From contig VBBS01000027.1 of assembly GCA_005888745.1 (NCBI GenBank), positions 55,045 to 119,044 of the forward strand: 64,000 bases of DNA, given 5' to 3'. Each line of letters opens with the position of its first letter. Positions within the stretch are counted from its first letter, which is position 1. Under the pieces are notes generated by a model, which saw only the letters and a list, made by a program, of their open reading frames with translations, was not told the origin of the DNA and made no database searches. The DNA comes from Candidatus Bathyarchaeota archaeon (GTDB lineage Archaea > Thermoproteota > Bathyarchaeia > 40CM-2-53-6). This document shows positions 521 to 50,208 of this stretch, piece by piece. Position numbers and translations under genes: made by a program.

Positions 521-922
521 TTGGCTACAAGCGAGGTTATTCTAGAGGAAACGCCTTACCTCAACCTAACTACTAAGGGTCGACGGACCAGCTTGTCTCG
601 CACCGTCGAACTCTGGTTCGCTTTCGAAGATGGAAAGCTGTACTTCTTAGCTCATGAAAATTCTGATTGGTGGAAAAACGTGAAGAAGACCCCCAGGGTG
701 GAGATTGAAGTTGGGGAGATACTTTTCGAGGGAAGCGGAAGTCTTGCTCAGGAGAAGCTCGACTATGTATTCGACCTCTTTCGACGGAAATATGGTGACG
801 ATCAAGTAAACAGATGGTATGGCGGCCAACGGTCCAACCGTAGAGTTGTCTCAGTGGACCTTGGAAGAGTCCTGGGCAAACGACCATCTGAGAAGATGCG
901 GCCTATTGAACTGGCAGCGTGA
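521..922 (+). CDS. PPOX/DUF385-like split-barrel (F420/FMN-dependent reductase-like) protein
   Basis: The ORF track calls 356..922, but its first ~55 codons are Arg/Ser-rich junk. The conserved part (ELWFAFEDGKLYFLAHENSDWWKNV...) begins near 500. Possible starts are TTG 521 or ACG 506, and there is no internal ATG. Confidence 0.5.
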   Translation: MATSEVILEETPYLNLTTKGRRTSLSRTVELWFAFEDGKLYFLAHENSDWWKNVKKTPRVEIEVGEILFEGSGSLAQEKLDYVFDLFRRKYGDDQVNRWYGGQRSNRRVVSVDLGRVLGKRPSEKMRPIELAA

Positions 923-1001
923 AAATCCTAGAGAACGAAGCCTCAACAGCTGACCCGATAGTCATATAGCAGGTTCACTCTAGAGAGCTGCTGGATTTAC
1001 G

Positions 1002-1265
1002 ATGGCTTACGGTTTAGCCGAAGGTTTCAGAAAGACCGCAATAAGGCTCGGTGGCAAAAAGAAGAACCGCGCGGTTATTGTTGCGACTTTTGGAAACCAT
1101 TTCACCTTGAACGATGCCCTAGAAAAGTTTCGCGCGGAAGGTTTGCGCTTCGAGACGGAGAAGGGCCATATTGTCAAGATTTTCCTGGACAAGAACACAG
1201 AAGAGAGAGCTGAGAAAGTGCGCAAGATCATACGCGAAGGTTTCGGCTACGTAGAACCTCTTTAG
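1002..1265 (+). CDS. hypothetical small basic protein
   Basis: 87-aa ORF with ATG start and balanced composition. No antisense overlap. Confidence 0.45.
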   Translation: MAYGLAEGFRKTAIRLGGKKKNRAVIVATFGNHFTLNDALEKFRAEGLRFETEKGHIVKIFLDKNTEERAEKVRKIIREGFGYVEPL

Positions 1266-4841: not shown

Positions 4842-6047
4842 ATGCCGAAGCTCTTCCCCGTTCAAGAGATAGGGAGTCTCGCAAAGCCCAAGTGGAGAAC
4901 GAAGGGGTTGCGACAACAACTCTCTTCGCAGGACCTCTCCGAGGCTGAAGAATGGGCTACGAAGCTGGGAATTCAGGACTTCCATGACCGAGCAAAGAGC
5001 ATTTTCAAGACCGGTGACGACAAGATGCGGGTCAAAGCGATTCTTGAACTCTCCACCTTGTATGGGCTGCGCCTCTTCGAAATCGCGGGTGTAGACAACG
5101 AAGGTGTCGGGGGAGAACAGCAACGAGTCGAAATGTACGAGCACGTAATCAAGGCCGTACAGGGAATGAACCTCCTCGGCCACGTCCACTCCTTTGACAA
5201 CAAGTACTTCAACAAGGGAGTTGCAGAGTCGAAGATCTCTAGAAAACATCCTATCTACGTGCCTGAATTTCTTGATGTCAAGAAATACGCCCACCGGGAC
5301 GTGAAGGTGCCGATTACCGGACCGTACACACTAGTAGACTGGTCCTTTAGCGGGTACTACATCCAGAAGCAACACGCCTCCTCTCCCAAGACACGGAGGA
5401 TCGAGGCAAAGCGCGAATTCCTCCTCGATATCGTAGAGCAAGTCATACGACCCGAGATCCGAGACCTAGTTGATGCGGGAGCCTCTTGGATACAGATAGA
5501 TGAGCCGGCGGTGACTACTCATCCAGAACCTCAGGAAATGGAGCTTTTCGTTGAGGCGTGGAATGAAACGGTCAAAGGGTTCAACTGCAAATTCAGTGAC
5601 CACACGTGCTACCCATCCGAGATAGGATACAAAGTGCTCTCGGAATACGCGCCGAAGCTAGACAAGTGCGACCAGCTCGCGTTGGAGTTCGCCAACCGAG
5701 ACACTTCGCGTCTTGGAGTCGACAAGGACTCGCGGGAAGGCTACGGCGACCTCAAACATTTCGTCGATGCTGGTTTCAGCGGAGAATTCGGGCTCGGTGT
5801 CGCCCACGTACACGATTTCACAGGAAACGTGTCCTCCGGTGCAGGAAAATCCGTGGGACGAGACTTTATCGAGTCTCCGGAGCTAGTGCGGGACCGTCTT
5901 CTGTTCGCTACCAGGATTGTAGGGGATCCGGCGAAAATCTGGGCGAACCCAGACTGTGGACTTCGGACCAGAACTTGGGATGTGGCCTTCGCGAAGCTCG
6001 CAAACGTCACGCATGGAGCCGAACTGGCAAGGGAGACATACCAGTGA
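4842..6047 (+). CDS. metE: cobalamin-independent methionine synthase, catalytic (C-terminal-type) subunit
   Basis: IQIDEPA motif, His/Cys zinc-ligand motifs (SDHTCYPS, NPDCGLRTR). Confidence 0.85.
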   Translation: MPKLFPVQEIGSLAKPKWRTKGLRQQLSSQDLSEAEEWATKLGIQDFHDRAKSIFKTGDDKMRVKAILELSTLYGLRLFEIAGVDNEGVGGEQQRVEMYEHVIKAVQGMNLLGHVHSFDNKYFNKGVAESKISRKHPIYVPEFLDVKKYAHRDVKVPITGPYTLVDWSFSGYYIQKQHASSPKTRRIEAKREFLLDIVEQVIRPEIRDLVDAGASWIQIDEPAVTTHPEPQEMELFVEAWNETVKGFNCKFSDHTCYPSEIGYKVLSEYAPKLDKCDQLALEFANRDTSRLGVDKDSREGYGDLKHFVDAGFSGEFGLGVAHVHDFTGNVSSGAGKSVGRDFIESPELVRDRLLFATRIVGDPAKIWANPDCGLRTRTWDVAFAKLANVTHGAELARETYQ

Positions 6048-6949
6048 GACTAGGTGATCGGGCGAGGCGTCATAACCTCGTTACGGTTGAACTTATTCCG
6101 GACAGAGTGGTTACTAGCGATTTGGCTCTCCTTAGGGGAAGAGTTGACGCTATCACCGTTCCGGCCTTGCGGAATGGCCATAATGACCCAAGTTATCCAA
6201 AGTCTTTCGCGATAACGCCCCAACGCCGAAGTCTTGCTTCCGCATCTATCATCAATAAGGCTGGGATAACCGCTGTTCCCTCGCTAACATGTCGTGATTG
6301 CAGCAGGCTGGACTTGTCAACTGTCTCGAACCAAGTGGAACAAGGGCTTGAGAACGTACTGATAGTCTACGGGGACCCTTATCCAGAGCCTCGTCCCGGG
6401 ACCTATGAGTTCACCAAAACGAACGAGCTAATTCGGGAGGTCTCCTCCCTAAACGACGGAAACGACCCATGCATTGGGGCAGTGACAAACCAACACGCTG
6501 ACAACAGGGAAGGCGAAATCTCCCGAACGATATCACGAGTAGACGCGGGCGCGGACTTTATTGTCACAAACGTCGCCTTCGACTCGGAGAGTGTACTTGA
6601 CCACAGGGATTCCCTACTGGAAGCAGGGTTAGACGTGCCACTCTTCATTCAAGTCTCTATTCCGCTCAACCTAGACAATGTGTTGTTTGTGAGCCAGAAA
6701 TTCGACATACCCGTCCCGGCTCAGGTCAGGAGAAAACTTCTGGAGGATCCGACTGGAGGAAGTCTCGCTGTTGCCGCTGATGCCTACGAGGCCCTACGTG
6801 GAGAAGCGAATGGTATTCACTTCTCATACCTGTTCCGACAACGAAATCCGATTCCCACTTATCGCCATCTGCTGGAGATAATTGGGATAGCAGGCCCGAC
6901 ACTGGCTCCGCTAGCCACGTCTCCTGTGAAAACATATCCCGTTGTCTAG
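6044..6949 (+). CDS. metF: 5,10-methylenetetrahydrofolate reductase
   Basis: MTHFR-like N-terminus (LVTVELIPDRV) begins at GTG 6044, which overlaps the metE stop (GTGA). The longer ORF from 5606 runs out of frame through metE and is rejected. Confidence 0.7.
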   Translation: MRLGDRARRHNLVTVELIPDRVVTSDLALLRGRVDAITVPALRNGHNDPSYPKSFAITPQRRSLASASIINKAGITAVPSLTCRDCSRLDLSTVSNQVEQGLENVLIVYGDPYPEPRPGTYEFTKTNELIREVSSLNDGNDPCIGAVTNQHADNREGEISRTISRVDAGADFIVTNVAFDSESVLDHRDSLLEAGLDVPLFIQVSIPLNLDNVLFVSQKFDIPVPAQVRRKLLEDPTGGSLAVAADAYEALRGEANGIHFSYLFRQRNPIPTYRHLLEIIGIAGPTLAPLATSPVKTYPVV

Positions 6950-34423: not shown

Positions 34424-35578
34424 ATGGTCGAGGAGAAGTTCGTCGTAACCCCTTGGGAGGTCAAGGGGGCGGTCGATTATGACCGACTGATCCGGGACTT
34501 CGGAACCCAACCGATAGCCGGCCTGCTGACCAAGAGGATGGAGGAGATTATGGGTGATGCTGGCTACCTCATCCGCCGGCACATCTTCTTCTCACACCGA
34601 GACCTCAACCTTGTTCTCGACGACTACTCGAAGGGCAAGGGATTATTCCTGTATACTGGTCGTGGACCTAGCGGTCCGATGCACATTGGCCACATACTCA
34701 GCTTCTACTTCACAAAGTGGCTGCAAGACAAATTTCATTCAAACGTCTACATTCAGATAACGGATGACGAAAAATTCCTTGAGGAGAAGCGGAACCTAAC
34801 CTACGAAGATACTCAACGATGGGCTGTAGATAATATTCGTGAAATTGCCGCGGTTGGCTTCGACCCTGATCGGACTTTCATTCTCCAAGACACGGAGTTC
34901 ATCGGACACGCGTATCCTCTAATTCTGAAAATAGCCCGGCGAGTCAATTTCAGCCTCGCCAAGTCAGTTTTCGGGTTTACTGGCGAGACAAACATCGGTT
35001 TCGCTTTCTACCCATCGATCCAGATTCTTCCAACCCTTCTCGAAAAAAGGCGCTGCCTCATCCCGTCGGCCATAGACCAGGACCCATACTGGAGGATACA
35101 ACGCGACATTGCCGAATCCATGGGATACTACAAGGCTGCTGCCGTTCACAGCAAGTTCCTGCCCCCGCTAACAGGGATGAAAGACAAGATGAGCTCATCA
35201 AAACCCGAGACTGCAATCTACCTCAGCGATGATGACAAGACGGTTCGGAACAAGGTATACCGGTACGCTTTTTCTGGTGGACAAGCGACCAAGGAGGAAC
35301 ATCGGAAGAAGGGTGGAGACCCCGATGTTGATGTTCCCTTCCAGTGGCTCTACATGTTCTTTGAGCCCGATGACAAGAGAATAGAGCAGATACGCGTCGA
35401 GTACAAAAGCGGCCGAATGCTTACAGGGGACCTCAAAGACATACTCATTGAAAAGGTGACAACATTTCTCAACCAGCACCGACAACGTAGAGAGAAAGCT
35501 GGCGACCTCATACATTTCTACAAGAAAGACGGGACGCTTGCACAGGAAATGTGGACTCGTGACTTCAGTAAATCGTAG
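34424..35578 (+). CDS. trpS: tryptophan--tRNA ligase
   Basis: Class I motifs (PSGPMHIGH HIGH-like, KMSSS KMSKS-like). Confidence 0.9.
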   Translation: MVEEKFVVTPWEVKGAVDYDRLIRDFGTQPIAGLLTKRMEEIMGDAGYLIRRHIFFSHRDLNLVLDDYSKGKGLFLYTGRGPSGPMHIGHILSFYFTKWLQDKFHSNVYIQITDDEKFLEEKRNLTYEDTQRWAVDNIREIAAVGFDPDRTFILQDTEFIGHAYPLILKIARRVNFSLAKSVFGFTGETNIGFAFYPSIQILPTLLEKRRCLIPSAIDQDPYWRIQRDIAESMGYYKAAAVHSKFLPPLTGMKDKMSSSKPETAIYLSDDDKTVRNKVYRYAFSGGQATKEEHRKKGGDPDVDVPFQWLYMFFEPDDKRIEQIRVEYKSGRMLTGDLKDILIEKVTTFLNQHRQRREKAGDLIHFYKKDGTLAQEMWTRDFSKS

Positions 35579-38061: not shown

Positions 38062-38236
38062 TTAGCCAGGGCTCCGAAATCTAACCGATTATTCCCGTCT
38101 GAATGTTATAAACGTTGATCCCTAAGACTAGCCCAAAGTAATCCGAAAGATATCCGACAGGAAAACCGTTACTTCTTGTTGAAACAGAAAATGAGGTTGG
38201 CAGCGGTCTAAGCTTCGCGTGGGCTTTCGCACCACA

Positions 38237-38503
38237 CTACCACATAGATCGCCTGGGAGATTCACTTCCGTGCTTCCGGTACGAGTCAAGCATCGCCCTA
38301 AGTGTTCCTGCCTTGCCAACATCACTGAATCCGATCCTATCACAGAATCGGAGCAAGTTGTCCCTGCCAAGGATGGCTAACTTCCAACTTGTAATCGTGC
38401 TCCTTCGAACGCCAGCCTTGGTGTCCAAGTACAACTTGGAGTCGATGCCCATTTCGGTGAGCATCCCGCCGATGTTTTCTAGGAGCATACTATTTGTGTC
38501 CAT
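38237..38503 (-). pseudogene. LAGLIDADG homing-endonuclease C-terminal remnant
   Basis: SWKLAILGRDNLLRFCDRIGFSDVGKAGTLRAML resembles the region downstream of the second LAGLIDADG motif of DOD endonucleases. No motif of its own. Confidence 0.35.
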
Positions 38504-38539
38504 GATGCTTTTCTCGTTCTTTCGGAATGGGTACGGGTC

Positions 38540-40552
38540 CTAGCTCCCAGCTATGGCCGCCAACCCCGTGAGCAATGCCCCCCGGAGTCGGCTAGATAAG
38601 CCTTGTCCGAAATCAGGCCTAGAAGCATACGCGGGCGGTGCTTCAACCGGATGGTAATATTGCGACGCTGGCTCGCGCCTTCGCCTTGATACTAGAGCTA
38701 TCAGAACTACGAGGAACAAGAGGGCTAACCCCGCAATGAGGTAGATGAAGGGAATCCCCACGACCTTCAGATTAGTCAGGTTTGGAATCCCATTTATCGT
38801 AACGGTCAAAGTGTTTTGCCCTGAGGCGAACCCGGGCTTCGAGGCCTGAACGGTGACAGTTGGGTTCGAGGCCTGGAGAGGCGTAGTGTAGACGGCCGTG
38901 TAGTTACCGTTACCGCCATCAGTTGGGCTTGAGAAGCTTCCACCAGCCGAGGATGAGAGAAAGATCGTGGCCCCTGTTACGGGGCTGGTTCCGTTTGTGA
39001 CTCGAATCATCAGGACAATCTCACCTCCCGGAGTGATCGAAGCAACGCTAGGAACGGCAGCTACGGTCAAAGGCGGAAACGGATTCAGAGTGATCGTCGT
39101 CAGAGCAGATCCACTTATGAAACCATTTTCACTCGCAATTACCTGAATTATCGAGCTGACAAGAGAGTTCACAAGCGGTGCTGTGAAATTGGACGAATAT
39201 ACACCGATGCTGCCCATGATAGGTTGAGTGAACCCGCCGCCAGCCGATGAGCTAAGAGCAAGAGTCACACCGGCCTGAGGAGTCGACCCATTCGTAACCG
39301 TGATGGTCAGAATCGAAACCTGTCCAGGCTTCAAGCTCGTCACGCTTGGAAATATCGTCGCCTGCAACCTAGGTGCGATTACGCCCAACGCGTAGACCTT
39401 CGTATCCCATGACCCGAAGAAGGCCCTAGAATCCGCGATGGCAGGGGACGAAGATATGCCGGCACCAGTCGTGTACTTCCAGAGCAAAGCCCCCCCAGTC
39501 GCGTTCAGCGCGTAAATGCTGTGGTCACTCGAGCCGAACAGTAGAGTATTCGAGCCGAGCGCCAGGGCTGGAGAAGATGAAATTCCCCCGATCGTACCTG
39601 CTTTGGGATACGTCCAGAGCTGGGCACCGGTCGTGGCGTTGAGCGCGTATAGAATGCCTCTGCCTGTTCCAAAATAAACTGCTCCATTGCTGACCGCTGC
39701 AGAAGTAGCGTTGAATGCTCCGATGTTGAACGTCCAGATAATGGCACCAGAAGTCTGGTTCATCGCGAGAAACCTATTGCTGTCAGCTCCAACGTACACC
39801 CTACCGTAAGCAAGAGCTGGAGCCGTGCTTATCGACGCCGCCACTCCAATAGGAACCTTCCATAGCTGAACACCCGTGGTCTCGTTAACCGCAACAACAT
39901 AGCCATTGTTTTGTCCGAAGACAACTCGACCATTATTGACCGAGGGAGATGACTTGATCGTGTCATCTCCAACATACTGCCAGGCGACCGTGTTGTTTGT
40001 ATAGACTGCCAAGAGAACTGAGTTGAACCTGACAAACCAGGTTCCGTAGAAGATCTTCCCACCAGCATAGACTGGCGAGGATGTGATCGGACTGATGTTC
40101 GCCCTCTGCCAGATCACCGATCCTGTCTGCTCATTGAGAGCATAGACCATCGAGTTTCTTGAGGCGAGATAGACTACGCCGTTCGCGACTGCAGGTGTCG
40201 CGTAGATCGGAGCTGAAGTGCTGAAGACCCACCTCTGAGCCCCGTTGTACTCGTCGAGCGCGTAGAGGTTTCCATCCCAAGATGGGATCAAAACCAGCCC
40301 GTCAACAACGACGGGGGAGGGATACACGTAGGATCCAGTTGTGAAAGTCCACATGAGGTTTGGCCCACTGGGCGAGGATGCTGGAGTAGTTCCGGTTCTC
40401 AGAGCGTCGTGATGGAACATCGTCCAGGGATAATCTGTAGGACCCGGAGAAGCGGCGGGAAAATGTTGCGGAGTCGCTGGTGTTTTGCTAGCGGGTATTC
40501 CTATGCTGAGAAGGAAGAGGGAAAGGATCAGAATAACAACTGCCCATCTCAA
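38540..40552 (-). CDS. PQQ-repeat beta-propeller surface protein with C-terminal membrane anchor
   Basis: Signal peptide, multiple PQQ/BamB-like repeats (YALDxxTGxxLW pattern), Thr/Ser-rich Ig-like region, C-terminal TM helix plus basic cytoplasmic tail. Confidence 0.7.
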   Translation of the reverse strand: MRWAVVILILSLFLLSIGIPASKTPATPQHFPAASPGPTDYPWTMFHHDALRTGTTPASSPSGPNLMWTFTTGSYVYPSPVVVDGLVLIPSWDGNLYALDEYNGAQRWVFSTSAPIYATPAVANGVVYLASRNSMVYALNEQTGSVIWQRANISPITSSPVYAGGKIFYGTWFVRFNSVLLAVYTNNTVAWQYVGDDTIKSSPSVNNGRVVFGQNNGYVVAVNETTGVQLWKVPIGVAASISTAPALAYGRVYVGADSNRFLAMNQTSGAIIWTFNIGAFNATSAAVSNGAVYFGTGRGILYALNATTGAQLWTYPKAGTIGGISSSPALALGSNTLLFGSSDHSIYALNATGGALLWKYTTGAGISSSPAIADSRAFFGSWDTKVYALGVIAPRLQATIFPSVTSLKPGQVSILTITVTNGSTPQAGVTLALSSSAGGGFTQPIMGSIGVYSSNFTAPLVNSLVSSIIQVIASENGFISGSALTTITLNPFPPLTVAAVPSVASITPGGEIVLMIRVTNGTSPVTGATIFLSSSAGGSFSSPTDGGNGNYTAVYTTPLQASNPTVTVQASKPGFASGQNTLTVTINGIPNLTNLKVVGIPFIYLIAGLALLFLVVLIALVSRRRREPASQYYHPVEAPPAYASRPDFGQGLSSRLRGALLTGLAAIAGS

Positions 40553-40699
40553 TGGAATCCCCTAGCTGAACCCGAACACCTTGCTCCAAGAGAGATTTGG
40601 AGAATCCACAACTAAAGAGACATGTAACTCACGCTTCCACAATCGCGGATGCGACAATCGGAGCAAAGCCGAAAACTAGATTAATCTAGACACGGCACA

Positions 40700-41002
40700 A
40701 CGCCCGAACAAGGTGCAACCTGTCTGATATTCGCCTTCTTAATCTTCTACCGGGTTAGACCGCTGTCTGAGGCAGATAAGAAGAAAGCCACAGCCGACTG
40801 GGCACGGTTCAAGAAAACACTGTCCAAAGAACTCGCGATAGTAGCGGAGTACGCGCACATCTGGGGAACAACCTACAACGGCATGATCCTCGTCGAGTCA
40901 CGTGACCTCTCCACATTCCACGACTTCTGGCACCGTTTCCGCGAAACTACAAGATGGTACGTGCCAGAGACAAGAACATACATCGCCCAGAAAGAAGAAT
41001 AG
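40700..41002 (+). CDS. small alpha/beta protein (DUF3303-like), candidate ACG start
   Basis: Clean 100-codon frame (..LIFYRVRPLSEADKKKATADWARFKK...FHDFWHRFRETTRWYVPETRTYIAQKEE). It has no in-frame ATG, GTG or TTG before a downstream Met. There is an in-frame ACG at 40700. Confidence 0.35.
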   Translation, partial: TPEQGATCLIFAFLIFYRVRPLSEADKKKATADWARFKKTLSKELAIVAEYAHIWGTTYNGMILVESRDLSTFHDFWHRFRETTRWYVPETRTYIAQKEE

Positions 41003-41263
41003 GCCAGAACTATCCCGAGTATTTCGACTAGGCTCTATACCAAGAATTTCCGACACCCGCATCTCAGTGGGGCACTCAACTCTCCGTCGGATTAGGAGAG
41101 ATTGTGCCACTGTTCCGGAAGGATTCTTAGCTTCGGCACCTTTCTCTCTGTCTTTTGACTGGAAACGCGCTCACTTGCCAGGGGTCTGGCCAGTGAAAAC
41201 GGTCAATAGGAAAATTCGCCCCCTAAGCGACCTTCTAAGCCCGTAGCCCTAGGATGTTACGAA

Positions 41264-41956
41264 TTGCTCACCGAGTCGCAGTCAGAGATGCTTGGGATAC
41301 TGTTCGGAGATGGGTCGATGTCTGAGAATCACAACTCCGTTCAGATCGTCATAACCGGTCACAAATTCGATGACGTAGAGTACCTAATTGGCCGCGTAGG
41401 TCCGATGTTCGCGGAACTCTTTGAAATGCCCCTCAAGGTACATCTAGTGAAAGATGAAAATACGATGATCCTCTACGCTTACTCCAAACGAATTGCCCTG
41501 ACCCTTCACGAATGGGGAATGCCTTTTGGCCGAAAAAAACTGGCCTGGCTCACACCGCACGTCGCATTGGATGAAGTATCTTTCGTCAGAGGCTTATTCG
41601 ACACAGATGGCTGTGTCTATCGCAAGTATGGCCCTTATTTGCAAATCCAGTTTAAGTTCGCTTCCCTTTCGCTCCTTGAGTACGCGAGGGAGTGTCTGGT
41701 AAGACTCGGCCTGAATCCCACATCGATCAGGTGCGACGATACGAAGTTCAGGTTCTATCTCAGCAGACAAGCCGAGGTAGACCATTTCTTTAGGGTCGTA
41801 GAACCCAAGAACCCAAAGCATCTTAATCGTTTCCAAAATGCTTCTCGGAATCGGTCCTACCGCCCATACACACATCGTCCTGAAGCACTCAGAAGAATTG
41901 GAAACCAACCAAGCCTTATAGGACCAATTCTGTGGAAAACACACTCGGTGGGGTAA
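41264..41956 (+). CDS. free-standing double-motif LAGLIDADG homing endonuclease
   Basis: Motif 1 LGILFGDGSM and motif 2 VRGLFDTDGCVY. TTG start. Confidence 0.8.
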   Translation: MLTESQSEMLGILFGDGSMSENHNSVQIVITGHKFDDVEYLIGRVGPMFAELFEMPLKVHLVKDENTMILYAYSKRIALTLHEWGMPFGRKKLAWLTPHVALDEVSFVRGLFDTDGCVYRKYGPYLQIQFKFASLSLLEYARECLVRLGLNPTSIRCDDTKFRFYLSRQAEVDHFFRVVEPKNPKHLNRFQNASRNRSYRPYTHRPEALRRIGNQPSLIGPILWKTHSVG

Positions 41957-41982
41957 CTAAGGAAACCTTTCGACATAGGGCT

Positions 41983-42163
41983 TGGGGCCGTAGTCTAGCC
42001 AGACCCACTCCGGGTCCTAGTAAGGGACGACGACGGGCTCCAGAATCTATGAAACATGCACACCGACCAATATCGAGGGATGAGGAAATTCGGGAGCGCG
42101 TGAAGATACCCGTAGACGAGGGACTCGGCGGATGTCGTGGGTTCAAATCCCACCGGCCCCACC
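41983..42163 (+). tRNA. tRNA-like gene with ~100-nt insertion (putative intron) and genomically encoded CCA
   Basis: 3' end GTGGG-TTCAAAT-CCCAC-CGGCCCC-A-CCA gives a perfect T-arm plus 3' acceptor strand. The only complementary 5' acceptor strand (GGGGCCG) lies at 41983, followed by TA and GTCT-AGCC-AGAC. A 9-bp helix forms between 42009-42017 and 42119-42127. Anticodon not resolved. Confidence 0.45.
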
Positions 42164-42619
42164 AGTGTAGGGCAAATCGTCAGGGACTGGAAAGATCAGG
42201 ATCTCCTCAGCACAGACTTTGGGTCTAACCATGGCTCTTCAATCCGCCTTCGAGTCTGTTGAGGAATGAATCAATGTACTGCCGTGCGATCCCCCAATCA
42301 AAACGGCTGAGAGAGTCCGATCCGGCCCCGTGAGGACGCGTGTCGCATTGTCATCGATTCTAAGCTAGGTTCACGTAGAATGTCTCGGTCCACGTAAGCG
42401 AGTCCATGATGATTTTCAACTCAATACTGCCCGTTGTCTTGTCTGCTTTTGTGGCGTTCCATCTAGCATTCTGAACCACGAGCAGGAGTGCGTCCCAAAC
42501 CTTCTCAAAGGCGTGGGCAAATCTACCTTCTTTTCTAAAGGCAACTTCTCACATTGGGCCTGCAACCTGGCAATAAACTCACACCCCATCGTCTCCTCAA
42601 TGCTCGGGGCAAATTGAAC

Positions 42620-49235: not shown

Positions 49236-49281
49236 GTACATTCTCCAAGCTCTATGACGAAAAGCGAGGGCGAATCTAGGA

Positions 49282-50208
49282 TTGCAGGTGGACATTCAAG
49301 AGTTGACCCCCATTCAAAGCTTCGGCAGAAGAATTCGAGCCTATGATAAAGCCACACGCCTCGCAAAGGAAGGTCGCCCTGTCACTGAAATCTCGAAAGA
49401 GACGGGAACGCCTGACGCTACCATCAGGGGATGGCTCGTAAACGGTCGAAAACCTTGGACCCGCTGCGAACTCTTCAAACCAACGTACTCTGATCAATTA
49501 ACATATGTTATCGGTGTTTACATGGGAGACGGCTCGATTTCCCGATGGAGAAATCGTTTTTTACTGCGATTAGATGTCAAAGACAAAGAATTCGCCGATA
49601 AGTTTTCTTCAACATGCGCACATGTTCTGGGTAGGAAACCATATTCTGTGAGGCATGTCAGGGATAGGGACACATACGAGACTATCATTTCAAACGCGTC
49701 TTTCTGCAAGTTCCTCAACCGAGGCCTCACCCACCTGGATCGGTATGTACGGGAGCATCCCTCTGGCTTTGTTAGAGGTTTAGCTGATAGCGATGAGTGC
49801 CCCACTGTGACAACAACAAAAAAGCGGGGCAAACCCTGGTTCTTCGTCCAAGTTGTAGTAGCAACATCCAAGAGCATACGCTTACTGAGCTATACTCGGA
49901 CGATCCTGAGGGAATGCCTCGGACTCAAAGCGACGCTAGTGTACAAAGGCAAGCCAAGACCCAGTGTGTTCAAGAACAAGTTGCTCCGTTCAAGAAAGAG
50001 GGTCTTTGACCTTAGGATATCGCGCTTTGGTGACGTGAAACGATTCTCCCGGGTTGTTGGTTTCGAATTGGCTCGGAAACAAGAGAAGCTTGCCGCTGCT
50101 ATCTTCGTCCGTGAAGGATTTGGTTCTGGTCAGGATGCGGTGAAAGAGTGGACCCGTCGCTGGGAGCATGGCACCACTGAGTGGATTCTCAAGAAAGGAG
50201 TGGACTAG
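49282..50208 (+). CDS. free-standing LAGLIDADG homing endonuclease with N-terminal HTH
   Basis: Motif 1 YVIGVYMGDGSI and motif 2 FVRGLADSDECP. TTG start. Lies between the thiolase and DUF35 genes. Confidence 0.8.
   Translation: MQVDIQELTPIQSFGRRIRAYDKATRLAKEGRPVTEISKETGTPDATIRGWLVNGRKPWTRCELFKPTYSDQLTYVIGVYMGDGSISRWRNRFLLRLDVKDKEFADKFSSTCAHVLGRKPYSVRHVRDRDTYETIISNASFCKFLNRGLTHLDRYVREHPSGFVRGLADSDECPTVTTTKKRGKPWFFVQVVVATSKSIRLLSYTRTILRECLGLKATLVYKGKPRPSVFKNKLLRSRKRVFDLRISRFGDVKRFSRVVGFELARKQEKLAAAIFVREGFGSGQDAVKEWTRRWEHGTTEWILKKGVD

Follow-up and report, generated by a model that had tools for sequence, protein, structure and literature searches.

The question raised by this locus is why a LAGLIDADG endonuclease gene should end 27 nucleotides (nt) before the first nucleotide, G41984, of a tRNA-like element that is interrupted by about 100 nt of additional sequence. 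Both lie in a 64-kb stretch of a Bathyarchaeia contig (VBBS01000027.1), which was analysed as a whole and is called the window here. An earlier note, made from the letters of this stretch, had considered either a tRNA with non-canonical or multiple introns, as seen in TACK (Thaumarchaeota, Aigarchaeota, Crenarchaeota and Korarchaeota) archaea, or a tRNA disrupted by a mobile element and left as an attachment-site (att) remnant. Our preferred explanation, to which we give a probability of roughly 75% with its proposed mechanism included, is that the element would be a functional tRNA-Trp gene with three introns beside a free-standing, optional homing endonuclease that appears specific for tRNA-Trp and whose homologues in one clade lie inside the tRNA gene, at the junction of nucleotides 25 and 26 (25/26). 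The evidence, which is drawn from sequence comparison, consists of a constrained three-intron tRNA, a constrained open reading frame (ORF), a polymorphism of presence, absence and decay of this ORF, family members within an intron at 25/26, and tRNA fragments flanking free-standing members in relatives.

For the comparison, we gathered about 60 loci encoding members of the endonuclease family (49-99% identity) using exact-protein look-ups and scans of genomes and metagenomes. Related Bathyarchaeia contigs are denoted by L-numbers. Homologues of the ORF are annotated as Bathyarchaeia or Bathyarchaeota and the closest ones come from soil metagenomes; the host of the tRNA-Trp is a soil Bathyarchaeia archaeon. 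Close relatives of the family were not found in IMG/VR, and a virus-borne origin was rejected on this ground.

Standard annotation overlooks the tRNA completely, so that genomes of an abundant soil lineage would seem to be without the gene. ARAGORN at default settings reported zero tRNAs over the entire window, Rfam at gathering thresholds gave no tRNA match anywhere in it, and a permissive Rfam scan of the region with an E-value threshold returned only partial matches of the transfer-messenger RNA/mascRNA type that were driven by the T-arm. When introns in the anticodon loop were allowed, ARAGORN reported a tRNA-Trp(CCA) with a 64-nt intron after G37. This model has two flaws, a forced acceptor/D arm of poor quality and a 'variable loop' of 23 nt, and two further introns, numbered 1 and 3 in Table 1, resolve both. 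The T-arm, acceptor strand and encoded CCA that had been described in the 3' part of the element, and the matching 5' acceptor strand upstream, do read in this way.

A search for bulge-helix-bulge (BHB) motifs, proposed in the earlier note, found them. Our strict scan required a 4-bp central helix between two 3-nt bulges, a cut after the second bulge nucleotide and a helix on the intron side. Run blindly on positions 41970-42175, it returned four motifs, two of which are introns 1 and 3, exactly at the sites that restore the cloverleaf; the remaining two (101 and 37 nt) would restore no tRNA. The background of such motifs in the window is about 10 per kb per strand, or about 3e-4 per pair of site and length, and therefore two short BHBs falling on the few acceptable splice choices are not due to chance. 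The BHB of intron 1 has the central helix CTAG (41995-41998)/CTAG (42017-42020), the inner helix GACCC (42002-42006)/GGGTC (42012-42016) and the bulges CC|A (41999-42001) and TA|A (42021-42023). In intron 3, the central helix is CCGT (42110-42113)/GCGG (42128-42131) and the inner helix CGAG (42117-42120)/CTCG (42124-42127), with the bulges AG|A and AT|G; an alternative placement of this intron at 42117-42134 was rejected, as it is 1 nt off and the BHB geometry sets the position given in Table 1. For intron 2 the anticodon stem serves as outer helix, CUCC (42038-42041) and GAAG (42102-42105) form the central helix and the bulges are AG|A and AU|A. Together, the three BHB introns sum to 104 nt and thus account for the insertion of about 100 nt, as the first of the two explanations above had anticipated, in this case for a locus of Bathyarchaeia.

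Joining the four exons in silico gives a 77-nt tRNA-Trp for which ARAGORN returns the full cloverleaf, with a 7-bp acceptor stem, a D-stem of three pairs plus U13-C22, G18 and G19, the variable loop AGGUC, the T-loop TTCAAAT, A73 and CCA. A 4-bp stem with a 4-nt loop, which had been noted behind the acceptor strand, does exist (GTCT 41993-41996, AGCC, AGAC 42001-42004) and is a by-product of this organisation, GTCT being the 5' strand of the D-stem and AGAC the start of intron 1. The fold of the whole element is not unusual (z -1.8). Archaeal BHB introns are excised by EndA and the exons joined by RtcB; likewise, the introns of this tRNA-Trp would be excised by the archaeal splicing endonuclease and the exons joined by a ligase. 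The BHBs of introns 1 and 3 use nucleotides of the D-arm and the anticodon stem, which would require refolding of the precursor, and splicing is probably stepwise.

Introns 1 and 3 are also complementary to each other over 9 bp, two of which are G-U pairs, and this helix is part of the minimum free energy fold. It had been seen before with coordinates shifted by 1 nt; the actual partners are 42010-42018 and 42120-42128. The helix is probably incidental, since it competes with both BHB hairpins and since relatives that lack one partner keep intron 3 unchanged (these are the beta alleles introduced below). No compensatory change was found for it in relatives. As it would block both BHB hairpins, it might control the order of splicing or be there by chance.

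The orthologous loci carry the same tRNA. Its exons are identical at 76-77 of the 77 positions between the window and seven relatives (eight sequences of the alpha type, that is with the D-loop intron), and the adjoining ORF shows synonymous divergence (dS) of 0.7-0.9. Intron 3 is identical at 16-18 of its 18 positions among the same eight sequences and is conserved in both alpha and beta allele types. Intron 1 was also found in 10 other distinct relatives, with differences only in the hairpin loop and a bulge. The helices of both introns are nearly invariant and one-sided changes preserve pairing (C-to-U giving G-U); in L092 the inner helix of intron 3 is wholly swapped for GGUC/GACC. Across more distant relatives, the T-stem variants are compensatory (GUGGG/CCCAC, GUCGG/CCGGC, CGGGG/CCCCG). 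Near-identical exons and intron changes confined to loops, next to an ORF with such dS values, indicate a strongly constrained gene rather than a remnant. On this comparative evidence, the element is a functional tRNA-Trp(CCA) gene with a predicted mature product.

Intron 2 has content of its own. An alignment of 39 distinct intron-2 sequences revealed the conserved block GGGATGAGGAAATTCGGGAGCGCGTGAAGAT, which reads GGGAUGA...UUCGGGAGC...GUGAAGAU and whose UUCGGGAGC pairs with the anticodon loop. More precisely, UUC(U/G)GGAGC pairs with the anticodon loop and the first intron nucleotides, with covariation in L009 and L004. Motifs resembling boxes C' and D' (GAUGA and CNGA) are present in the window (42084-42107) as well as in L004, L005, L008, L098-L100, L007, L090 and others. 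A box C/D guide in the tRNA-Trp intron is described for Haloferax and other Euryarchaeota in the account of Clouet d'Orval 2001 (PMC7714728). The tRNA, the canonical intron position and the GAUGA and CNGA boxes are the same here, and in many relatives an ACGGGU guide stands upstream of the CNGA box, such that the fifth nucleotide upstream of the D'-like box (N+5 rule) faces position 39, the target in Haloferax as that account gives it. The intron 2 of some relatives thus satisfies the D' guide rule. In the window clade the ACGGGU guide is lost and a short hairpin takes its place. Unlike in Haloferax, the spacing of the boxes (16-17 nt) and the terminal box depart from the archaeal 12-nt rule. 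The intron 2 of the window as a box C/D small RNA was rejected: it has no guide for position 39, a spacing of 16 nt, the terminal box GUGA and no Rfam match.

The 230-residue LAGLIDADG ORF upstream of the element is present as the earlier note had stated and matches Pfam LAGLIDADG_3 (E 6e-9). The closest relatives share its TTG start. Motif 1 reads LGILFGDGS (residues 10-18) and motif 2 VRGLFDTDGC (residues 108-117), with the acidic residues conserved in both (GDG, residues 15-17; DTDG, residues 113-116). An AlphaFold2 model built with 14 homologues reached a mean confidence score (pLDDT) of 85.5; residues 1-197 (41264-41854) are confidently modelled, mostly above 90, and the tail (residues 198-230) is predicted to be disordered and is not conserved. 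Sequence similarity to solved structures is weak. Foldseek returned the archaeal, intron-encoded I-Tsp061I (2dch) as best match (E 1e-11, TM 0.69/0.77), followed by I-DmoI. Model and structural match agree with a LAGLIDADG fold of two alpha-beta-beta-alpha-beta-beta-alpha units. The ratio of nonsynonymous to synonymous substitution rates (dN/dS) is 0.18-0.29 against L088, L089, L001, L090 and L091, which indicates that the ORF of the window is kept by selection. Based on motifs and model, it is predicted to be a monomeric, two-motif LAGLIDADG homing endonuclease with presumed cleavage activity.

The family appears dedicated to the tRNA-Trp locus of Bathyarchaeia and almost always adjoins this gene. 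A pre-tRNA-Trp profile matched the fetched DNA in 57 of the 62 family locus records, and the misses were mostly truncated contigs. Three arrangements can be distinguished. In type A (L099, L098, L100 and L004, which equals L117; at least four independent contigs), the ORF lies inside the tRNA-Trp gene and occupies nearly all of a 620-622-nt BHB intron at 25/26. The profile is split accordingly, with positions 1-40/44 immediately 5' of the ORF and 42/43-193 immediately 3' of it. Positions 1-25 of the tRNA follow an A/T-rich, promoter-like stretch and end 7-15 nt before the ATG of the ORF, and the final codons of the ORF overlap G26-ACGGGCUCCAG, which is why several database proteins end in ...IKTGSRM. 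The BHB of this intron (..UAUG AC|A CUGGG ... CCCAG CAUA AA|G ACGGG) has an inner helix of 8-9 bp that joins ends 600 nt apart, and the spliced products are canonical tRNA-Trp. Among 19 distinct introns at 25/26, long and short, 89.5% of the cells of the BHB are paired compared to 29-46% in slid controls, and there are 20 double-sided changes compared to 7.5 +/- 2.2 in shuffled data (0/500), so that covariation is clear for this intron. A group I intron was rejected, as Rfam gave no match at E<=0.1 in type A loci and none in the region of the window.

Most loci, the window among them, belong to type B, in which a complete tRNA-Trp follows the ORF. This tRNA occurs in two allele types: alpha carries the D-loop intron, as in the window, and beta an ORF-less intron of 31-46 nt at 25/26, with ends as in the 620-nt intron. 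The two introns are mutually exclusive and were never found in one tRNA-Trp of a type B locus. In many type B loci a 5' tRNA-Trp fragment precedes the ORF (L001, L010, L095 and the L139 group). In type C (L008, which equals L110, and L005) a complete tRNA is followed by the ORF and then by a 3' partial copy from position 26. Fragments of tRNA-Trp were detected in L001, L010, L095, the L139 type, L008, L005 and L112. In L095, an alpha fragment comes first; a decayed ORF with a frameshift follows it, then a beta fragment and, last, another ORF that belongs to the window clade. This stack reads like a record of successive insertions. In L005, a free-standing ORF is directly followed by the sequence (..TTAGTAAA|ACGGG) that forms the 3' splice junction of the ORF intron, and in L001 CAGTACAAG-GGGCTCTAT stands ahead of the functional tRNA. 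Such relics in relatives suggest that the free-standing state could be derived from the intronic one, although the direction is uncertain.

Further arrangements were seen in single contigs. In L112 the ORF is followed by two tandem copies of tRNA-Trp, one partial (2203-2354, profile positions 1-128) and one complete (2490-2695). L119 has a complete tRNA-Trp in inverted orientation ahead of the ORF (970-1136, minus strand), and L098 a 5S rRNA gene (524-643, minus strand; Rfam 68.7 bits) about 800 nt upstream of its type A tRNA-Trp.

The gene is optional. Frameshifts or in-frame stops were found in about 20 family loci and are shared between independent contigs. Sampling of the locus independently of the ORF, through the neighbouring DUF1512 gene (proteins 86-99% identical), yielded six syntenic loci; the ORF has left no trace in four of these (L175, L177, L178, L180), is frameshifted in L176 and is intact in L179. 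The tRNA-Trp of L177 is of the beta type, and those of L175, L178 and L180 are alpha alleles whose 25/26 junction is uninterrupted. In a blastn comparison with L175, the window is colinear over 40033-41076 and 41984-42164, and the gap between them is 907 nt in the window and 23 nt in L175. A block homologous to 41025-41076 of the window directly precedes the 5' end of tRNA-Trp in L175, L001 and L139 and may act as a promoter. For the tRNA-Trp of the window itself, a TATA-like sequence in the tail of the ORF and the GGTGGGG behind it are a low-confidence candidate for promoter and leader (Table 1).

Two other candidates near the ORF were rejected. The string CCGTAGCCCTAGG (41241-41253) as a remnant of exon 1 is equally similar to exon 3, has a chance copy in a coding region (62820, minus strand) and gave a blank nhmmer search. 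An inverted repeat around the ORF (CTAAGCCC/GGGCTTGG in the window, ATAGAGCC/GGCTCTAT in L001) was considered as a processing stem or BHB that excises the ORF and was discarded for want of conservation in the L139 group and because its 3' arm resembles a relic of the anticodon arm.

Taken together, we propose that the endonuclease gene of the window stands free between an older promoter/leader block and tRNA-Trp, and that the enzyme would cut tRNA-Trp alleles without the gene. Repair would then copy in the gene and the adjacent 5' part of the tRNA as a cassette. The copied 5' part, interrupted by an intron near the cut site, would likely be resistant to the enzyme, and the former 5' part of the recipient would remain as a fragment. 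Targeting of the uninterrupted allele, as suggested in the earlier note, has strong circumstantial support from these comparisons, since homologues form an intron at 25/26 and since alleles without the endonuclease gene and with an uninterrupted 25/26 junction exist.

Several observations weigh against this explanation. The 25/26 junction of the window tRNA is itself uninterrupted and its D-loop intron is 9 nt away, so that it is not evident how an intron would make this allele immune. No tRNA fragment is detectable upstream of the window ORF (nhmmer E>1; Smith-Waterman p ~0.05), and a duplication of promoter and leader, tested within the window alone, was not significant. L111 has the ORF and no tRNA-Trp within 1.4 kb, and in L009, L115 and L116 an intact ORF precedes a tRNA-Trp with the canonical intron only and none in the D-loop or at 25/26. 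A strict pairing of window-clade ORFs with the alpha allele had to be rejected, as L092, L097, L127/L128 and L007 are beta; among these, the ORFs of L097, L127 and L128 have a stop or frameshift, the match in L092 lacks the first 17 residues and the ORF of L007 shows neither stop nor frameshift. In the tree of the endonuclease, type C is nested within type A; this tree is unrooted and compatible with an intronic or a free-standing beginning. With regard to splicing, four of four central-helix pairs form in introns 1 and 3 and only three of four in intron 2. The exon-side helix of introns 1 and 3 has 0-1 bp, with 5 and 4 bp on the intron side, and intron 2 has the anticodon stem on the exon side and only about 2 bp on the intron side, so all three depart from the strict hBHBh' form. 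Lacking an outer exon helix, introns 1 and 3 would therefore require a broad-specificity splicing endonuclease. The BHBs of the window are relaxed forms as known in other TACK archaea.

A reverse history, which may be called collaborative homing, is possible but doubtful. Here the gene would first have stood free beside an intron-bearing tRNA-Trp, as it still does in the window, and later have entered the 25/26 intron to give type A, so that the window would display the ancestral condition instead of an escape. It would fit the predominance of free-standing arrangements across several clades of the sample and the wide distribution of the ORF-less 25/26 introns of 31-46 nt with the ends of the 620-nt intron, and the F-CphI/psbA system provides a precedent in the description given in PMC6083498. 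The splice-junction relics in L005 and L001 are, however, easier to explain through descent from an intronic state, and the position of type C inside type A in the tree also speaks against this history. We consider it unlikely that the protein has been domesticated, whether to bind DNA or RNA or to assist the multi-intron pre-tRNA-Trp in the manner of a maturase, and is no longer mobile, with linkage reflecting co-expression. Purifying selection (dN/dS ~0.2), the position next to tRNA-Trp with possible co-transcription and faint LAGLIDADG_WhiA marks in Pfam on some homologues would agree with such a role, but both catalytic acidic positions are kept. Moreover, many close relatives with the same tRNA-Trp introns lack the gene or carry it frameshifted, so that it is dispensable for splicing, and BHB splicing requires no maturase.

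The adjacency might also be incidental and the window ORF an inert passenger on its way to decay, unrelated to the tRNA introns; many sister copies are already pseudogenes and the window tRNA has no intron at 25/26. We regard this as quite unlikely, as the ORF is intact across 230 codons (dN/dS 0.23 against L089 and 0.18 against L001) and the association with tRNA-Trp holds throughout the family, intronic members included. Very unlikely, finally, is the second explanation of the earlier note, in which the tRNA-like element would be a pseudogene or an att-type remnant of an integrating element. Default ARAGORN and Rfam miss the element and partial tRNA-Trp copies do exist at the locus in relatives, where they flank the ORF. 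In the window, no such fragment and no tRNA repeat bounding an element was detectable, and an integrase or recombinase gene was not found at the locus. The element itself is conserved and complete: acceptor, D, anticodon and T arms are all present once the three BHB-bounded segments are removed, the exons are invariant across relatives and it is this copy that stays intact in every locus.

The three-intron tRNA type of the window is already known; the system of endonuclease and tRNA-Trp across relatives is a variation on known systems. Multi-intron tRNA genes with non-canonical BHB introns are described from Thermoproteales and other archaea (PMC4033280, PMC4090602), and relaxed non-canonical BHBs need an EndA of the (alpha-beta)2 or epsilon2 form (PMC5829648, PMC4033280). 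The window shares with these tRNAs up to three introns at canonical and non-canonical positions and a relaxed BHB without an exon-side helix, and splicing would presumably be by a broad-specificity EndA, (alpha-beta)2 or epsilon2 in the terms of PMC5829648. In contrast to them, the host is a mesophilic soil member of the Bathyarchaeia, the intron set varies between alleles of one gene and the tRNA-Trp locus also holds an endonuclease gene. Many archaeal rRNA introns encode LAGLIDADG homing endonucleases (PMC4496867). I-DmoI and I-Tsp061I from such introns have the same fold, and type A resembles their introns in that the ORF lies inside a BHB intron with an inner helix joining the ends. Here, however, the host gene is a tRNA, and in the window the endonuclease gene lies outside the RNA gene.

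LAGLIDADG enzymes cleave intron-less alleles near the insertion site and spread through repair (PMC6083498). The same source describes F-CphI of cyanophage S-PM2 (Zeng, Bonocora and Shub 2009), a free-standing endonuclease beside the intron-containing psbA. As far as that description goes, the two systems share a free-standing endonuclease adjoining an intron-bearing target, an intron that may protect the resident allele and the occurrence of an intronic state in relatives. They differ in that F-CphI/psbA combines a group I intron and an Endo VII-type enzyme in a phage, and the Bathyarchaeia system a BHB intron and a LAGLIDADG enzyme, with putative cleavage specificity and immunity; in addition, 9 nt separate the window intron from the site that intronic relatives occupy. 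The tRNA-Thr locus of Caldiarchaeum subterraneum consists of a 5' tRNA fragment, a 1.8-kb recombinase-encoding insertion and an intron-richer tRNA copy (PMC3293823). It is similar in its upstream 5' fragment, protein-coding insertion, downstream complete tRNA with other introns and heterogeneity in the population. Unlike there, the insertion is neither a recombinase nor a transposable element but a LAGLIDADG gene of about 0.6 kb, which occurs as a spliceable intron as well, and the fragments are clear in Bathyarchaeia relatives and not in the window.

The origin, movement and persistence of archaeal tRNA introns is an old open question for which protection from integration and intron transposition have been proposed, with scant direct evidence. 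The locus ties non-canonical tRNA introns to an endonuclease family that is intronic, free-standing or missing depending on the genome, and thus offers a testable route of intron gain and loss at the DNA level. We can only tentatively suggest that Bathyarchaeia provide the first known case of a tRNA gene with BHB introns that bear a homing endonuclease and that the locus records a full homing cycle, which would comprise the empty site, the ORF intron, the ORF-less intron and the free-standing gene flanked by discarded tRNA halves. Small non-canonical introns would then spread and be kept for the immunity that they give against a resident endonuclease, and where the endonuclease stands free, as in the window, it would move as one cassette with a 5' part of the tRNA that is interrupted by an intron and resistant to cleavage. 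If this is true, a mechanism acting at the DNA level would account for how archaeal tRNA introns are gained and turned over. Neither an ORF-bearing BHB intron of a tRNA gene nor this Bathyarchaeia family was met with in a literature search, made in a library that is incomplete, so that absence is not proof. The enzyme would also be a compact LAGLIDADG scaffold with a predictable target of about 20 bp in a universally conserved gene.

Table 1 Features of the tRNA-Trp locus and its neighbourhood in the window. Positions are those of the 64-kb stretch.
Feature	Position	Strand	Basis
Tryptophan--tRNA ligase gene	34424-35578	+	NCBIfam equivalog matches
88-aa ORF resembling a C-terminal LAGLIDADG fragment	38237-38503	-	weak matches to intein endonuclease regions
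Promoter/leader-like block CGACT..CTCTATACC (41033-41041)..AGAATTTCC..GTGGGGCAC (41068-41076)	41025-41076	+
Segment holding the ORF, replaced by 23 nt in the endonuclease-less allele L175	41077-41983	+	blastn
LAGLIDADG endonuclease gene, 230 aa, TTG start, TAA end	41264-41956	+	Pfam, AlphaFold2, Foldseek, dN/dS
TATA-like CCTTATAGG in ORF tail, ~62 nt before tRNA, then GGTGGGG (41947-41953)	41914-41922	+	by-eye likeness to L001, L139
tRNA-Trp(CCA) gene, 181-nt precursor including encoded CCA	41984-42164	+	ARAGORN with introns allowed; in-silico splicing; conserved exons
Exon 1: acceptor 5' strand, U8 A9, D-stem 5' strand GUCU, D-loop AGCC to nucleotide 17	41984-42000	+
Acceptor stem, 5' strand GGGGCCG	41984-41990	+
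Intron 1, 22 nt, D-loop, after nucleotide 17	42001-42022	+	strict BHB scan
Exon 2: remaining D-loop AGGGA, D-stem 3' strand CGAC, G26, anticodon stem ACGGG, loop CUCCAG	42023-42043	+
Anticodon CCA	42040-42042	+
Intron 2, 64 nt, canonical 37/38	42044-42107	+	ARAGORN; alignment of 39 distinct intron-2 sequences
Exon 3: A38, anticodon stem 3' strand CCCGU, A44 G45	42108-42115	+
Intron 3, 18 nt, 45/46 in variable loop	42116-42133	+	strict BHB scan
Exon 4: G46 U47 C48, T-arm, acceptor 3' strand, A73, CCA	42134-42164	+
T-arm GTGGG (42137-42141), loop TTCAAAT, CCCAC (42149-42153)	42137-42153	+
Acceptor stem, 3' strand CGGCCCC	42154-42160	+
Discriminator A73	42161	+
Encoded CCA	42162-42164	+
Further LAGLIDADG-type ORF, LAGLIDADG part residues 79-279, N-terminal extension	49258-50205	+	profile E 9e-10

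The window holds two other LAGLIDADG-like reading frames. The ORF at 49258-50205 sits between the end of a thiolase-like gene (~49235) and the start of a DUF35-like zinc-ribbon gene (~50245) and appears free-standing without a nearby RNA gene. The 88-aa ORF lies between the DUF1512 gene and a gene with pyrroloquinoline quinone (PQQ) repeats, where L001 and L179 carry a 142-aa LAGLIDADG_3 gene.

Compared to L175, the region 38090-41076 of the window is a mosaic in which the DUF1512 proteins are 99% identical and the PQQ-repeat gene region only about 72% (DNA); no PQQ gene was called in L175 and L180. Downstream in the window, tRNA-Trp and a 4HBT gene are separated by an intact rpiB gene on the opposite strand. 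In L001, a TnpB-like gene (Cas12f1-like_TNB; 5492-6691, plus strand) follows tRNA-Trp ahead of the 4HBT gene, and no rpiB was called.

The tryptophan--tRNA ligase (TrpRS) gene is located 6.4 kb upstream of tRNA-Trp. The block of TrpRS, M24 peptidase, a small ORF, DUF1512, in some cases the PQQ protein, and tRNA-Trp is syntenic in L005 and L175-L180, and in these loci the genes for the alpha and beta subunits of phenylalanine--tRNA ligase (PheRS) follow TrpRS.

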